From positions 3,618-67,617 of the forward strand of contig JAFGXV010000035.1 in NCBI GenBank assembly GCA_016936455.1: 64,000 nt of DNA, read 5' to 3'. This stretch comes from Desulfuromonadaceae bacterium (GTDB taxonomy: Bacteria; Desulfobacterota; Desulfuromonadia; Desulfuromonadales; Desulfuromonadaceae). This document shows, one piece after another, positions 33,553 to 39,141 of this stretch; position 1 is the first letter of the stretch; the number at the start of each line of letters is the position of its first letter. The notes beneath the pieces were generated by a model, which was not told where the DNA came from, ran no database searches, and saw only the letters and a list, made by a program, of their open reading frames with translations. The translations under genes were made by a program, and so were the position numbers.

Positions 33553-33593
33553 AAAGTGGATTAACAACACCAACCAAGGAATTGAAGACCACC

Positions 33594-34427
33594 ATGCGCG
33601 ATAAAATTGTCTGCCCTTTTTTTCGCAAAAACGAGGATCACTGCGATGTCGGTTGCGGCTACATCTCCAACCACGATGTCAAGATGATCATCAGTTACTG
33701 CGCCGATGATTACGGCCAGTGCATGAAATTCCGGGAACTGGCTGACCGTTATCCCACGATGTTGAATTACACGGCATCCCTTGATGCCACACTGCCTTCC
33801 AATCACATAACAAAGGAGAGAAAGACCATGGCCAACGAACTGAAAAACCTGTCCCTGCAAGACACCACTGCTAACCCCGCGCCGCTGGGCCTGCTCGGCT
33901 TCGGCATGACCACCGTGCTGCTCAACCTGCACAATGCCGGCTTCTTCCCCCTCGACGCCATGATCCTCGCCATGGGCGTCTTTTACGGCGGCATCGGCCA
34001 GATTATCGTCGGCATCATGGAGTGGAAAAAGAACAACACCTTCGGCGCTACCGCCTTTACCTCTTACGGGCTGTTCTGGCTGACCCTGGTCGCCCTGATC
34101 CTGCTGCCGAAAACCGGTATGGTTGCAGCCTCCTCGCCGTTCGCCATGGGCTTCTACCTCACGGTATGGGGCATGTTCACCGCCGTGCTGTTCCTCGGCA
34201 CCTTCCGCCTCAACCGCGCGCTGCAGGTCGTTTTCGGCTCGCTGACCATCCTGTTCTTCCTGCTGGCAGCCGGCGACTTCAGCGGCATCCACGGCGTCAA
34301 AGTGATTGCCGGCTATGAAGGCATCTTTTGTGGCCTGTCCGCTATCTACACCGGCCTGGCCCAGGTCATGAACGAAGTGTTCAACCGCCAGGTTGCTCCC
34401 CTCGGCGCAATTGCCGTCAAGAAGTAA
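33594..34427 (+). CDS. satP: SatP/YaaH acetate-succinate transporter, copy 1, with in-frame Cys-rich N-terminal extension (core starts at 33828)
   Basis: ANPAPLGLLGF signature, NNTFGATAFTSYG; internal AAGGAG RBS before ATG 33828. Confidence 0.88.
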   Translation: MRDKIVCPFFRKNEDHCDVGCGYISNHDVKMIISYCADDYGQCMKFRELADRYPTMLNYTASLDATLPSNHITKERKTMANELKNLSLQDTTANPAPLGLLGFGMTTVLLNLHNAGFFPLDAMILAMGVFYGGIGQIIVGIMEWKKNNTFGATAFTSYGLFWLTLVALILLPKTGMVAASSPFAMGFYLTVWGMFTAVLFLGTFRLNRALQVVFGSLTILFFLLAAGDFSGIHGVKVIAGYEGIFCGLSAIYTGLAQVMNEVFNRQVAPLGAIAVKK

Positions 34428-34441
34428 ATCGTTCTTTCACC

Positions 34442-34478
34442 AAGCCGGGCCTTCACGCCGTGAAGGCCCGGCTTTTTT
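34442..34478 (+). terminator. Terminator after satP1
   Basis: AAGCCGGGCCTTCAC-GCC-GTGAAGGCCCGGCTT followed by TTTT. Confidence 0.85.
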
Positions 34479-34498
34479 ATGTCAAGAAGTGTACGGAC

Positions 34499-35200
34499 AT
34501 GTCGACCAAACATCCGGTGAAACCGTTCAAGATCAAGTGGCCTGCGGCAACCCTGCTGCAACAGGTTCTGCAACAGCAGAACTTTTTTTCTGTCGCCAAA
34601 CCGGCGGCGGTCAGCGAGACGCAGAGAGCCTGCCAGCTGGTAGACACCACGGCCAATCCCGCGCCACTGGGTCTGCTCGGCTTCGGCATGACTACCGTGC
34701 TGCTCAACCTGCACAATGCCGGCTTCTTCCCCCTCGACGCCATGATCCTCGCCATGGGCGTGTTCTACGGCGGTATCGGCCAGATCCTGGTCGGGCTGAT
34801 GGAATGGAAGAAGAACAACACCTTCGGCGCCACTGCCTTTACGTCGTACGGACTGTTCTGGCTGAGTCTGGTCGCCCTGATCCTGCTGCCGAAAACCGGG
34901 CTGGTGACGGCCTCCTCTCCGGTGTCCATGGGTTTTTACCTGACGATCTGGGGATTGTTCACGGCGGTCCTATTCCTCGGCACCTTCCGCCTCAACCGCG
35001 CCCTGCAAGTGGTGTTCGGCTCGCTGATGTTGCTGTTCCTGCTGCTGGCAGCTGCGGACTTCAGCGGTAATGGCGCGCTCCAGATCTATGCCGGCTACGA
35101 AGGCATTTTCTGTGGCCTCTCAGCGATCTATGCCGGTCTGGCCCAGATGATGAACGAAGTGTTCCAACGCACGGTGCTGCCGATGGGGACGTTCCGTTAG
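34499..35200 (+). CDS. satP: SatP/YaaH transporter, copy 2, with a distinct ~45-aa N-terminus
   Basis: DTTANPAPLGLLGF; start codon uncertain. Confidence 0.82.
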   Translation: MSTKHPVKPFKIKWPAATLLQQVLQQQNFFSVAKPAAVSETQRACQLVDTTANPAPLGLLGFGMTTVLLNLHNAGFFPLDAMILAMGVFYGGIGQILVGLMEWKKNNTFGATAFTSYGLFWLSLVALILLPKTGLVTASSPVSMGFYLTIWGLFTAVLFLGTFRLNRALQVVFGSLMLLFLLLAAADFSGNGALQIYAGYEGIFCGLSAIYAGLAQMMNEVFQRTVLPMGTFR

Positions 35201-35204
35201 GCGG

Positions 35205-35244
35205 TTTTGCAAAACAGCCGAACCGTTTTTGCATTTTTGCAAAA
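35205..35244. promoter_or_regulatory. Putative sigma54 enhancer (UAS) of satP3
   Basis: TTTTGCAAAACAG-N8-TTTTTGCA-T-TTTTGCAAAA. Confidence 0.65.
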
Positions 35245-35427
35245 CAATCTAAACCGTTAAAAAAACGAATTTTTCAGACTTCGCGAAAATTCTTCAAGTA
35301 ACCAAACCATTTTTTTTTGCACAAACGCGAATTGAAAGAGCACTACAGCAAGACAAAAAAAACGCATAAAATAAAAAAACAAACAAATTCAATATATTGT
35401 ACGCAGAAAAGAAAACAGAACAGTTTT

Positions 35428-35443
35428 TGGCACAGCCCCTGCT
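35428..35443 (+). promoter_or_regulatory. sigma54 promoter of satP3
   Basis: TGGCACAGCCCCTGCT; IHF-like ATTCAATATATTG at 35387-35399. Confidence 0.78.
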
Positions 35444-35571
35444 ACAGAGACAACCATCCACGCGACGAACGGCTTGAACAACCCGCGCTGGAGAAAAAAT
35501 AAAACAGACGACAGCGTCTCAGACCCGACATAGAAACAACCCATTCACTCACTGAACAAGGAGAACAAACC

Positions 35572-36162
35572 ATGGCGAACGACACCCAAAACCTGTCCCT
35601 GCAAGACACCACTGCCAACCCCGCTCCGCTGGGCCTGCTCGGCTTCGGCATGACCACCGTACTGCTCAACCTGCACAATGCCGGCTTCTTCCCGCTGGAC
35701 GCCATGATCCTCGCCATGGGCGTCTTCTACGGCGGCATCGGCCAGATCATCGTCGGCGTCATGGAGTGGAAAAAGAACAACACCTTCGGCGCCACCGCCT
35801 TTACCTCTTACGGTCTGTTCTGGCTGACCCTGGTCGCTCTGATCCTGCTGCCGAAAACCGGCATGGTCGCGGCTTCCTCGCCGTTCGCCATGGGCTTCTA
35901 CCTGAGCACCTGGGGCCTGTTCTCCGCCGTGCTGTTCCTCGGCACCTTCCGCCTCAACCGCGCTCTGCAGGTCGTGTTCGGTCTGCTGGTGATCCTGTTC
36001 TTCCTGCTCGCAGCGGCAGACTTCTCCGGTAATCATGCTCTGAAAATCATCGCCGGCTACGAAGGCATTCTCTGCGGCCTGTCCGCCATCTACACCGGTC
36101 TGGCTCAGGTCATGAATGAAGTCTTCAACCGCGAAGTTGCACCCTTAGGCGTTATCAAATAA
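35572..36162 (+). CDS. satP: SatP/YaaH acetate transporter, copy 3
   Basis: Canonical 196-aa protein, NPAPLGL signature, AAGGAG RBS. Confidence 0.93.
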   Translation: MANDTQNLSLQDTTANPAPLGLLGFGMTTVLLNLHNAGFFPLDAMILAMGVFYGGIGQIIVGVMEWKKNNTFGATAFTSYGLFWLTLVALILLPKTGMVAASSPFAMGFYLSTWGLFSAVLFLGTFRLNRALQVVFGLLVILFFLLAAADFSGNHALKIIAGYEGILCGLSAIYTGLAQVMNEVFNREVAPLGVIK

Positions 36163-36354: not shown

Positions 36355-36918
36355 ATGTACAACTGTTCCGATCTGAAAAAAGGACTGAAAGTGATGATCG
36401 ACGGGGAACCGCACGTCATCGCCCAGTTTGACTTTTCCAAGCCGGGAAAGGGCCAGGCCCTGTATAAATGCAAACTGCGCAACATGATTACCGGCTCGCT
36501 GTTTGACCGCACCTATCGCAGCGGCGAGAGCTTTGAACCCGCGCCGCTGGAAGAGCGCGACATGCAGTACCTGTATCAGGATGAAACTGGCTACGTGTTC
36601 ATGGACACCAAAAGCTTCGAGCAGATTTCCCTGAGCGCCGACACGCTGGGCGATGACAAATACTTTCTGGTCGACAACATGGAAGTCAAGATTCTGATGT
36701 TCGGCGAGGTTGGCATCGGCATCACCCTGCCCAACTTCGTCACCCTGCGCGTTACCCAGGCCGATCCCTGGGTCAAGGGTGACACGGCGGCCGGCAACAA
36801 CAAGCCCGCAACGGTGGAAACTGGTTACACCCTGCAGGTTCCTTCCTTTGTGGATGAAGGCATCCTGATTCAGATCGACACCCGCACCGGCGAATATGTG
36901 ACCCGCGTCAAGGAATAA
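36355..36918 (+). CDS. efp: Elongation factor P
   Basis: KPGKGQA loop, KGDTA, DTRTGEY. Confidence 0.97.
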   Translation: MYNCSDLKKGLKVMIDGEPHVIAQFDFSKPGKGQALYKCKLRNMITGSLFDRTYRSGESFEPAPLEERDMQYLYQDETGYVFMDTKSFEQISLSADTLGDDKYFLVDNMEVKILMFGEVGIGITLPNFVTLRVTQADPWVKGDTAAGNNKPATVETGYTLQVPSFVDEGILIQIDTRTGEYVTRVKE

Positions 36919-36921
36919 ACC

Positions 36922-37833
36922 ATGTCCTTTTCCTGCGCGCTGGAGCAAAAACGGTCGCGCCTGCAAGCCCGAGCCCGGATTTTCAACGAAATCCGGGCTT
37001 TTTTTACCTGCCGGGACTTTCTCGAGGTCGAAACCCCCCACCGCATTCCGAGCAACGCCCCCGAGCTGCATATCGACGCCCAGCCCAGCGGCGAGCAGGT
37101 TCTGCATACCTCGCCGGAGCTGTGCATGAAACGGCTGCTGGCCGCCGGCTATCCGCGCCTGTTCCAGATCTGCCACTGCTGGCGCAGCGCCGAGCGCGGC
37201 GCGCGCCACCTGCCCGAGTTCACCCTGCTGGAATGGTACCGCGCCCACAGCGACTACCACAGCCTGATGGACGATTGCGAGCGGCTGCTGACCCGGCTGA
37301 TTCCCGACACCCAACTCCATTATCAGGGACAGACCATCGACCTCACCCCACCCTTCGAGCGACTGACCCTGGCTGAGGCCTTTGCACGCTACGCGCCGCT
37401 GTCGCTGGAGCAGGCTTTGGCCACGGATCAGTTCGAGGAACTCTACAGCGATCAGGTCGAGCCGGATCTGGGCCGGGGGAAACCGACAATCCTCTATGGC
37501 TTTCCGGCTTCCATGGCCGCGCTGGCGCGCTGCTGCCCAATCAACCCGCACCAAGCTGAGCGTTTCGAGCTCTATATCGCCGGACTGGAACTGGCCAATG
37601 CTTTCAGCGAGCTGACCGACGCGGCCGAACAACGGCAGCGTTTCGAAGCCGAAGAAGCCCTGCGCCGGGCGCAGGGCAAACCCGGCTACCCGCTGCCGGA
37701 AGCGTTTCTGCGCGACCTGGCTCACATGCCCCCCGCCGCCGGAATCGCCCTGGGCCTCGACCGCCTGGTGATGCTGCTGACCGATGCGACGACCATCGAC
37801 CAGGTGGTGGCCTTCACGCCCGAGGACCTGTAG
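36922..37833 (+). CDS. epmA: EF-P lysine aminoacylase EpmA/GenX
   Basis: LHTSPELCMKRLL, HLPEFTLLEWY, ELANAFSELTD, GIALGLDRL; adjacent to efp. Confidence 0.93.
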   Translation: MSFSCALEQKRSRLQARARIFNEIRAFFTCRDFLEVETPHRIPSNAPELHIDAQPSGEQVLHTSPELCMKRLLAAGYPRLFQICHCWRSAERGARHLPEFTLLEWYRAHSDYHSLMDDCERLLTRLIPDTQLHYQGQTIDLTPPFERLTLAEAFARYAPLSLEQALATDQFEELYSDQVEPDLGRGKPTILYGFPASMAALARCCPINPHQAERFELYIAGLELANAFSELTDAAEQRQRFEAEEALRRAQGKPGYPLPEAFLRDLAHMPPAAGIALGLDRLVMLLTDATTIDQVVAFTPEDL

Positions 37834-37977
37834 TTACCGAGCCTGTGACCAATCGCCATGCAGCACTCTGCCCCCTCTCAGGCTGCACAAAACCACAATC
37901 GTTTCTGCGCCAAACCGGCGCAAAAAATGCGCGAGTCCCCCTGTCCGCCAAAGACGGGTTTCGCTAGGATAACCCCC

Positions 37978-38072
37978 ATCAGCTCCTGTTGTGGCAGGCG
38001 GGAGTTGACTCCTTCTTCCTTGTTGTTCACACAAAAAGGCCGGATCGGTTGCCTCCCCGATCCGGCCTTTTT
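37978..38072 (+). ncRNA. Candidate trans-acting small RNA
   Basis: TAGGAT -10 at 37965, 5' hairpin, CU/GU-rich linker, strong terminator; no credible ORF. Confidence 0.5.
38033..38072. terminator. Bidirectional terminator
   Basis: AAAAAGGCCGGATCGG...CCGATCCGGCCTTTTT. Confidence 0.88.
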
Positions 38073-38091
38073 GCATCCTCTGTTTTGTTCC

Positions 38092-39141
38092 TCAGCGCGC
38101 ATCGGGCTGCTGTGGATAGTGGACCAGCGTTCCGTCCGCCGCGCGCAACCGAGCCTCATCGCCCAGACACTCGGTATAATCGGGCGTCAGGGGAATCTTG
38201 CCCAGGCCTCCGGGCAGATCGACGATATAATGGGGCATGGCCAGCCCGGACAGGCGACCTCGCAACCCGGCCATGATGGCAATACCGGTTTCCAGGCGGG
38301 TCCGAAAATGGGCGGTGCCGCGGGTCAGATCCATCTGGTGCAGATAATAGGGGCGCACGCGCAGGCGATAGAGACGATAAAACAGGTCATACAATACCTG
38401 CGGATCGTCATTGACCCCGCGCAGCAGCACCGTCTGGTTGATCAGCAAGATCCCTGCCGCCACCAGCTGCTCGCAGGCAGCCACGGCCTCGGGCGTCAGC
38501 TCTGCCGGGTGGTTGAAGTGGGTCAGCAGGTACAGGGGCTGACAGCGCCCGAGCAGCGCACACAGCTGCGGCGTAATACGTGAGGGCATCGCCATGGGAG
38601 CCCGGCTGCCGAGGCGCAGCACGTCGACGTGGGGGATACGACGCAACCGCTCGAGAATTTCCTTGAGCAGGCTGTCGGGCAGCGTCAGGGGATCGCCGCC
38701 GGAAAGAATTACCTCGTTCATCTCAGGATGTTCGGCGATATGGTCAATGGCCCGCATCACCTCGCCGAGACTGACGGCTTGATCACGGCAGCCGACGCGG
38801 CGCTTGCGGGTACAGAAACGGCAGTAGCTGAAACAGCTGGAGCAGACCAGCAGCAGCACGCGATGGGGATAGCGGTGAACCAGCTGCGGCACCGGAGACA
38901 GAGCTTCCTCATTGAGCGGATCAGAGGGTTGCAGACCGTCGGCCAGTTCCGCCGGATCCGGAACAAACTGTTGCCGAACGAGCTGTGGCGCACTTTCAGC
39001 CAGCTTCATCAGGTGCGGCGTCAGGCGCACGGGATAGCGCTCGGCCACAGGTTCCAGATCGGCTGCGTCCAGAGCAAAACGCTGCGCCAGCACCTGCACA
39101 TCCGAACAGGCCTGACGGAGTTCAACTTGCCAGAGCTCCAC
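38092..39141 (-). CDS. epmB: KamA-family radical SAM lysine 2,3-aminomutase, probably EF-P beta-lysylation protein EpmB
   Basis: HRYP, CFSYCRFC, SGGDPL, NQTVLLRGVND, PGGLGK; next to efp-epmA. Confidence 0.82.
   Translation of the reverse strand: MELWQVELRQACSDVQVLAQRFALDAADLEPVAERYPVRLTPHLMKLAESAPQLVRQQFVPDPAELADGLQPSDPLNEEALSPVPQLVHRYPHRVLLLVCSSCFSYCRFCTRKRRVGCRDQAVSLGEVMRAIDHIAEHPEMNEVILSGGDPLTLPDSLLKEILERLRRIPHVDVLRLGSRAPMAMPSRITPQLCALLGRCQPLYLLTHFNHPAELTPEAVAACEQLVAAGILLINQTVLLRGVNDDPQVLYDLFYRLYRLRVRPYYLHQMDLTRGTAHFRTRLETGIAIMAGLRGRLSGLAMPHYIVDLPGGLGKIPLTPDYTECLGDEARLRAADGTLVHYPQQPDAR

Follow-up and report, generated by a model that had tools for sequence, protein, structure and literature searches.

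A multicopy family of two-hairpin RNAs in the Desulfuromonadales, linked to a NarL-type two-component system and predicted to pair with a porin mRNA

Introduction

The intergenic region between epmA and an epmB-like gene in a Desulfuromonadaceae genome contains one copy of a multicopy family of small two-hairpin RNAs. A NarL-type response regulator probably switches on these sibling RNAs as a family, and they would repress translation of a porin by pairing with its ribosome binding site; from the comparisons described here we put the probability of this reading as a whole at roughly 0.6. We establish the structure, the transcribed strand, the copy number and the common promoter architecture of the family from alignments of its members, and the sequence patterns make it very likely that its members are transcribed and act as regulatory RNAs.

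The DNA analysed is a window of 64,000 nucleotides. A first-pass annotation of this window had placed an independent plus-strand base-pairing sRNA of ~95 nt in the gap, and the start region, stem, anti-SD linker and terminator all support such an RNA; the dyad, the TAGGAT hexamer, the stem, the linker and the terminator that it described lie exactly where it put them (Table 1). What it overlooked is the multicopy family, most members of which are not tied to epmA or epmB, and the covarying porin target.

Results

The gap of 258 bp separates the stop codon of epmA (37833), a gene named for its synteny with efp, from the end of the convergent epmB-like gene (38092). The predicted 96-nt RNA (37978-38073) folds with an energy of -48.6 kcal/mol (z -7.6), a value equalled by none of 200 shuffles, into two hairpins with an unpaired linker of 24 nt between them, the first hairpin having the loop GUGGCA (37991-37996). 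The window copy scores 96.7 bits against our covariance model R1, which had this copy in its training set. The terminator is symmetric and can therefore also stop transcription of the convergent epmB and read-through from efp-epmA. Three RNA runs from one study gave contigs over the window at a depth of only 2-6. One of these (37809-38054) spans epmA into the sRNA and is unbroken at the inferred start, at a depth so low that it may represent DNA, while a second low-depth contig covers 38056-38414; the same low-depth runs give zero cover over the sibling on contig C15. Elsewhere in the window, 33582-36162 contains a tandem array of three GPR1/FUN34/yaaH (satP) paralogues, and in the second of them no obvious ribosome site is seen at the place that corresponds to the start of the other two.

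Table 1. Coordinates of the sRNA locus, its flanking genes and the candidate regulator operon
Feature	Position	Strand	Remarks
sRNA gene, ~96 nt	37978..38073	+	start inferred from conserved -10 box and CCATC start motif
Hairpin 1	37979..38008	+	upper stem and loop nearly invariant across the order
Unpaired CU-rich linker	38009..38032	+	predicted seed over porin mRNA SD region, from complementarity and covariation
Intrinsic terminator, conserved C-rich loop	38033..38072	+	A and T runs on both sides
-10 hexamer TAGGAT	37965..37970	+	retains all three positions that hardly vary in the family
Promoter-proximal conserved box, about -51 to -34	37927..37944	+	column conservation; overlaps -35 region
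Degenerate family operator CTGCAC-N4-CCACAA	37883..37898	.	at the family position
Dyad of the first-pass annotation	37906..37922	.	left arm on the weak -73 half-site echo; full palindrome private to the window copy
epmA	36922..37833	+	ORF and Pfam tRNA-synt_2; flank, outside the system
efp	36355-36918		upstream of epmA; Pfam EF-P domains
epmB-like radical SAM gene	38092..39141	-	Radical_SAM and LAM_C; convergent flank, outside the system
Sensor kinase and response regulator operon	G000:C15:55542-57745		in the genome of the window (G000)

The gap sequence was used as a query against 61 genomes, and its RNA part was found in each of the 23 other members of the family, many of which gave several matches. 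Extraction by motif patterns gave 86 copies across 24 of 24 family genomes, with 1 to 8 copies each, although the sets for individual genomes may be incomplete. The genome of the window has three copies, the other two being siblings on contigs C1 and C15. Because the copies were extracted by motif patterns the motif frequencies are biased upward: GTTGTGGCAG of hairpin 1, a motif that itself helped to select the copies, is found in 84 of the 86, and GCCTCCCC of the terminator in 72. In an alignment of 46 copies 98.6% of the cells in a 27-pair structure are paired, and 13 of the 27 pairs show changes on both sides, a number that none of 500 shuffles reached, while sliding the structure along the alignment drops pairing to 28–57%. 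Compensatory changes affect 3 of the 11 pairs of hairpin 1, also 98.6% paired in the family alignment, and 10 of the 16 pairs of the terminator. Both hairpins and the CU-rich linker are found again across the order. G-U cells number 177 and A-C cells only 2, which indicates that the plus strand is the one transcribed.

The covariance model, which is biased toward its own family, gave hits in 49 of the order's 76 genomes; in the rest of the class it produced weak hits in 7 of 75 (E 8.7e-5 to 6e-3). A pattern search across the class was too loose, matching 44 of the 75 genomes outside the order, and was left unused for presence or absence. When each species was represented by a single genome, 89 stretches came up, and 80 were examined. 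These gave 73 matches in records titled Desulfuromonadales or related deltaproteobacteria, a few being titled Geobacteraceae, and the name of the order is taken from these titles; 56 of the 73 carry the operator, the -10 box and the terminator loop, whereas the 12 matches in other phyla have neither operator nor -10 box. Malonomonas rubra DSM 5091, a cultured member of the order, is among the strains with a copy. Operator scores are 8 or less in 13 of the 73 scored matches. An operator-less subclass with a different linker and upstream region (L320, L323, L325, L327, L339, L344, L364, L370, L376, L379, L385, L388) comes mainly from records that have Geopsychrobacteraceae, Desulfuromusa or Desulfuromonas in the title, and is probably under other control.

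The copies have varied neighbours in both orientations, with downstream genes often convergent. A copy lies close behind epmA in two other genomes (~120 bp in G007 and ~1.1 kb in G001) and 7–11 kb from it in three more (G009, G013, G019). The RNA as such belongs to neither epmA nor epmB. Complete siblings also occur in tandem arrays of two or three, ~230–260 bp apart (L316, L329, L343, L390, L089, L100, L303, L306), most of the siblings scored having their own operator. Four copies (L317, L335, L345, L366) have two hairpin 1 modules in tandem before a single linker and terminator, which suggests that the invariant hairpin is a separable module. In linkers from outside the family of the window (L084, L095, L100, L303-L306) the word CTTCAT occurs in 20 of 59 and is complementary to AUGAAG starts, which are typical of signal peptides. 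Together with the C-rich terminator loop it could form a two-site clamp on the SD and the start codon.

Promoter columns were derived from 68 other copies aligned on the start motif. The T, A and T of the -10 box are each 99% conserved, and the window copy differs from the family majority at two positions of the box. Nearly every copy has the palindrome CTGTGC-N4-GCACAG at about -88; for 64 of 69 copies the first base of the best operator is at -96 or -95. Half-site echoes are found at -73 (z 2.8) and -51 (z 2.5), and their spacing of 22–23 bp suggests that up to three regulator dimers could bind on one face of the helix; the promoter-proximal box of Table 1 is possibly a third, degenerate regulator site.

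The operator of the window copy has a position weight matrix score of 2.5–3.5, while 84 of the other 85 copies score 7.0–26.3. It is the second lowest of the 86, and 120 of 2054 upstream windows of its own genome reach the same score. The operators of the other two siblings in this genome score 19.8 and 22.6 and are the top two sites in the genome, one of them being shared with the kinase. Because the window operator is degenerate the control of this copy may differ. Activation through its own worn site is conceivable but on the doubtful side, and the copy may be expressed at a low level, answer to another factor or be reached by efp-epmA read-through to the same terminator. A weak operator-like site (12.5) was also seen at G000:C15:53752-53767, upstream of degP/htrA and beside the sibling and the two-component operon, and degP adjoins the kinase in most family genomes inspected.

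The C15 sibling faces a sensor kinase gene across ~130 bp, and a response regulator gene follows the kinase. Pfam identifies HAMP, HisKA_3 and HATPase_c in the kinase and Response_reg in the regulator. The C-terminal part of the regulator matches the ComA DNA-binding domain (E 0.0056) and NarL-type NCBIfam models cover its residues 5-195 at scores below their cutoffs; Pfam GerE is unmatched, so the DNA-binding domain is atypical. With a receiver, a LuxR-type helix-turn-helix and a HisKA_3 partner the regulator has the features expected of the NarL/FixJ family. In a structure prediction (pLDDT 79) the sensor half forms a bundle of helices that resembles NarQ best (E 0.005, TM about 0.4), a likeness too weak and generic to name a ligand from. 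The regulator is a single-copy gene, 70–89% identical, in 74 of 76 genomes of the order; it was found in none of 75 other genomes of the class and nowhere outside the order in a 301-genome sample of the phylum. The two genomes of the order that have no regulator (G032, G074) also gave no RNA model matches in the same sample; many genomes with the regulator gave none either, and the absence in these two goes no further than being consistent.

Kinase promoters were then scored with a matrix built from the sRNA promoters. The operator before the kinase scores 12.8 or more in 42 of 42 loci, with or without a sibling there, and in 39 of them its distance from the start codon is -50 to -52; a sibling faces the kinase in four of these loci and, judged by coordinates, in three more genomes. 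Only one of the 2054 upstream windows of the own genome reaches a score of 12, and that is the kinase's own. Autoregulation by the response regulator is the simplest reading of the palindrome in the kinase promoter, and in this genome, which is 79% complete, the regulon looks like the operon itself plus the siblings. It is quite likely, from this shared site, that the two-component system controls the sRNA family.

To find targets we matched the sibling linkers against the 2075 leaders predicted in the own genome. The leader of a porin-like gene of the MKRV/MKRI type (G000:C1:14228-15586) contains the longest exact linker complement of all 2075, at 12 nt, and ranks 6 by energy; it had ranked 3, 69 and 10 for the three siblings in an earlier scan, and the porin was chosen in this genome after that scan. 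The window linker pairs with this leader at -22.1, compared with -18.6 and -20.2 for the other siblings. The porin matches the DESULF_POR1 model below its cutoff (69 of 250 bits), which is the model of the Desulfovibrio major porin, a protein described in PMC5686591.

Across relatives, 15 of 27 porin-family leaders fall within the best 5% of a strong-SD background, which consisted of 150 of the 405 strong-SD leaders of the own genome and not of each relative's. The duplex model behind these figures ignores mRNA folding, and the sibling sets of relatives may be incomplete. All 15 are among the 20 leaders of the AGGAGGAA type, a split that was drawn after the result was seen, while eight porin-family leaders show no pairing (11–76% of background). 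A third porin paralogue in the own genome ranks 1629 of 2075, and in G011 a pairing porin leader was absent among the leaders examined. Six further leaders were fetched later: of five in the same class four are in the best 5% and the fifth is at 6%, a divergent porin paralogue among the six standing at 37% of background. These later successes include G007 and G017, whose first paralogue had failed, and with both rounds counted the best 5% contains at least one porin leader from 17 of the 21 genomes.

Native sets of sRNAs pair better with the porin leaders than foreign ones do, by a mean shift of -1.03 z that none of 5000 permutations matched. In the comparison with control families the porin leader is in the best 5% in 13 of 17 genomes, while none of nine control gene families (8–20 leaders each) is, their shifts being -0.24 to +0.11; one control family gave p 0.04, and two porin paralogue families were omitted from the control table. 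With one genome per clade in eight clades the median p is 0.001 and the worst 0.016, and the result holds without the own genome; with four coarse clades the median p for covariation is 0.083. The covariation can be followed in individual genomes. The end of the window linker, including a 3′ extension private to this copy, matches its own porin leader, whereas in G013 and G019 the duplex is extended to ~25 pairs with a different linker end, G003 and G015 use a third linker-end pairing, and one genus has a sibling whose anti-AUG word extends over the start codon of the porin. Of 37 genomes from outside the family only 9 yielded a member of the porin family, so the porin is not an order-wide target as detected. 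The own genome has hfq. Taken on its complementarity and covariation, the porin mRNA is a probable target of the sibling sRNAs.

Another candidate is a GSU2203-family decaheme cytochrome gene (467 bits, above cutoff), which is followed by a gene for a GSU2204-family outer-membrane protein. The word AGGAAG, complementary to the linker core, stands upstream of the SD in the cytochrome leader of 17 of 20 family genomes, and 12 of 20 cytochrome leaders are in the best 5%. Both leader and linker are nearly invariant, so that covariation cannot show here, and the same AGGAAG might instead reflect conservation of a strong ribosome site. This upstream element is mostly missing from the cytochrome leaders of eight genomes outside the family. 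We regard the decaheme cytochrome operon as a tentative target, somewhat more likely to fail than to hold.

Genes resembling those of outer-membrane proteins are modestly enriched among the top targets, 4 of 16 such genes, heuristically labelled, being in the top 100 (p 0.006). The leader of a TonB-dependent receptor gene (L244, G000:C7:6056-8893) is similar to that of the porin and takes rank 11 among the 2075. A TorF-like porin (C4:68081) was tried and rejected, being in the best 5% in only 1 of 11 genomes. The complement of the invariant loop, CTGCCAY, lies no more than 150 nt ahead of the start in 7 of 34 porin genes, five of them from one clade, and likewise upstream of 3 of the 16 genes for outer-membrane-like proteins in the own genome (p 0.014, post hoc, with 5 of 1039 comparable words doing equally well). 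A conserved word complementary to this loop was also seen ~60 nt upstream of a second class of porins (L174, L183, L184, L186, L188), which are paralogues without linker pairing; the loop complement ahead of such non-pairing porins is possibly a second pairing site.

A search of Rfam 15, the scan that the first-pass annotation had called for, found no family at the gathering threshold in the window and one weak match among 16 other loci. Weak matches to ar14 (RF02344, the 'cuckoo' RNAs) reached 33.5 and 29.6 bits against a gathering threshold of 58.8, and run through C-rich anti-SD words and the terminator loop. An ar14 RNA has three hairpins, each with a CCUCCUCCC loop, whereas here the loop of hairpin 1 is GUGGCA and the anti-SD word is in the linker. 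Membership was rejected, as only the terminator loop is C-rich and repeated CCUCCUCCC hairpins are absent.

In the portions of the full-text literature covered we found no description of the RNA, the site or the regulator, nor any sRNA family described for this group of bacteria; subscription journals, bioRxiv supplements and motif lists other than Rfam lie outside that scope, and an earlier mention of the RNA is possible. The palindrome is not shown in the 12 of 53 places available from a regulon survey of metal-reducing deltaproteobacteria (PMC545781), and a word search of text-extracted PDFs did not find the element listed in the multicopy-sequence supplement of PMC3543383. The sRNA candidates of Geobacter soli, which belongs to another order, are given by coordinates only in the available text of PMC6013743.

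Discussion

The results fit a circuit in which a periplasmic signal would activate the NarX/NarQ-shaped sensor kinase, and the kinase would phosphorylate the response regulator. The regulator would bind CTGTGC-N4-GCACAG at about -88, and more weakly the echoes at -73 and -51, and, to judge from the shared sites, would activate both its own operon and the siblings, which are likely transcribed from their own promoters. The covariation suggests that the CU-rich linker pairs with the porin leader and blocks ribosome loading, probably with Hfq. A weaker step would add the GSU2203-family decaheme cytochrome operon and other envelope genes as further targets. With its worn operator and intact RNA the window copy is probably under weak or different control, perhaps read-through from efp-epmA.

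The alternative that bears most closely on the window copy is that it is uncoupled or decaying, with little transcription from its own promoter, and now serves chiefly to stop transcription arriving from either side and to provide the 3′ ends of efp-epmA and epmB. The low score of its operator, which is within the range of chance, the two deviations in its -10 box, the symmetry of the terminator and the unbroken RNA-run contig, for what its depth is worth, all point this way, but the body of the RNA is intact, the invariant -10 positions and start motif are kept, and its linker not only pairs with the porin leader better than those of both siblings but matches it through the private 3′ extension; we think this reading improbable, although it deserves more weight than the others considered here. 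For the family as a whole the RNAs might mainly bind a protein through the invariant hairpin, with mRNA pairing secondary, as in the Csr/Rsm RNAs, which act as protein sponges. Such a role would suit the conservation of the upper stem and loop of hairpin 1, greater across the order than that of the linker, and the tandem hairpin 1 copies, and control of several copies by one two-component system is also a feature of Csr/Rsm RNAs, which the available text of PMC4211561 lists as siblings. However, the plus strand is C/U-rich, the loops are GUGGCA and C-rich with no repeated GGA loops, the linker covaries with an mRNA leader and most copies have a single hairpin 1, and we consider a mainly protein-binding role unlikely.

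Its many copies, varied neighbours and strong terminator, and a minus strand with an SD-like word, could also be explained without a trans-acting sRNA, if the element were a leader, a type I antitoxin, a dispersed repeat or a mobile cassette that carries a terminator. Every copy, however, brings a spaced promoter and operator, and the neighbours lie in both orientations with downstream genes often convergent. On the opposite strand an SD followed by a start codon occurs in just 22 of 86 copies, the codon always being TTG and the peptides non-hydrophobic and of unequal length, no type I toxin partner being apparent on that strand, and there was no phage match; the repeat, cassette, leader or antitoxin reading is largely refuted and very improbable. 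Least probable of all is the interpretation offered with the first-pass annotation, an NtrC-controlled GcvB- or AbcR-like sRNA that represses satP3. The dyad on which NtrC control was based exists, but when the 144-bp upstream part was shuffled 1000 times an equally perfect dyad with 6-bp arms appeared in 14% of cases, only 1 of 68 other copies has any perfect dyad at the same position, and the conserved operator is another palindrome ~23 bp further upstream. The G pair of a -24 element, at the spacing used by sigma-54-type promoters, is not conserved in the family, which has an invariant sigma-70-type -10 box and no conserved NtrC-type dyad. The proposed 9-nt complement AACAAGGAG is indeed present in the satP3 leader (35555-35563), yet it also occurs in 16 of the 2075 leaders, and satP3 ranks 1279 and 938 of 2075 in two scans, so that no preference of the seed for this transporter leader is seen.

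By sequence evidence the family resembles known sibling sRNAs in having several copies with conserved structure, terminator and promoter, in sharing a regulator site with the regulator operon (weak in the window copy), and in its computationally conserved complementarity to a translation initiation region. CiaR is an OmpR-type regulator with a direct-repeat site. The csRNAs of the Streptococcus CiaRH regulon, as far as the available text of PMC3091779 and PMC4211561 describes them, work in the way predicted for the siblings here, one sibling type of which has the anti-AUG word that pairs with the porin start. Unlike the csRNAs the present family has a Gram-negative host with hfq, a NarL/ComA-type regulator, a palindromic site and a predicted outer-membrane porin target, and no Rfam match joins the two. 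The LhrC1-5 RNAs of Listeria, controlled by LisRK, are likewise siblings activated by a two-component system, as is probable here, and share a CU-rich single-stranded linker and terminator loop directed at AG-rich SDs of envelope mRNAs; LhrC has three CU-rich sites including loop A where loop 1 here is GUGGCA (available text of PMC5880928). No Rfam match links our RNAs to LhrC either, and the phylum and regulator are different.

MicA, MicF and RybB are porin-repressing sRNAs of enterobacteria. Together with OmrA/OmrB they are alike in the repression of outer-membrane mRNAs downstream of sensing, which is predicted here; homology was undetected, and the present family differs in having up to eight dispersed copies, an internal linker seed and a candidate activator of NarL type instead of OmpR or sigma-E. 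The Qrr promoters of Vibrio depend on sigma-54 and LuxO. Here the -10 box is of the sigma-70 type and the regulator NarL-type, and there is no sequence match to Qrr. The available text of PMC4211561 lists OmrA/B among sibling sRNAs and describes four to five dispersed Qrr siblings under one response regulator.

The family is new to Rfam and its putative response-regulator site is supported by 42 genomes. The proposed circuit of sensor, regulator, operator, sibling RNAs and covarying target is complete and testable. That siblings under a two-component system repress envelope proteins is a logic already known from other phyla. At its most speculative, and with the odds against it, the system would be an order-wide module of the Desulfuromonadales, a two-component system with almost no protein-coding regulon that acts through up to eight siblings to lower the main porin and the decaheme cytochrome–outer-membrane protein operon, gating solute entry and extracellular electron transfer, with the invariant hairpin as a separate module (a second seed or protein site) recruiting a new factor. 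Members of the host group matter as reducers of sulfur and metals and as producers of current, and if the cytochrome target is true it would link RNA regulation to extracellular electron transfer.
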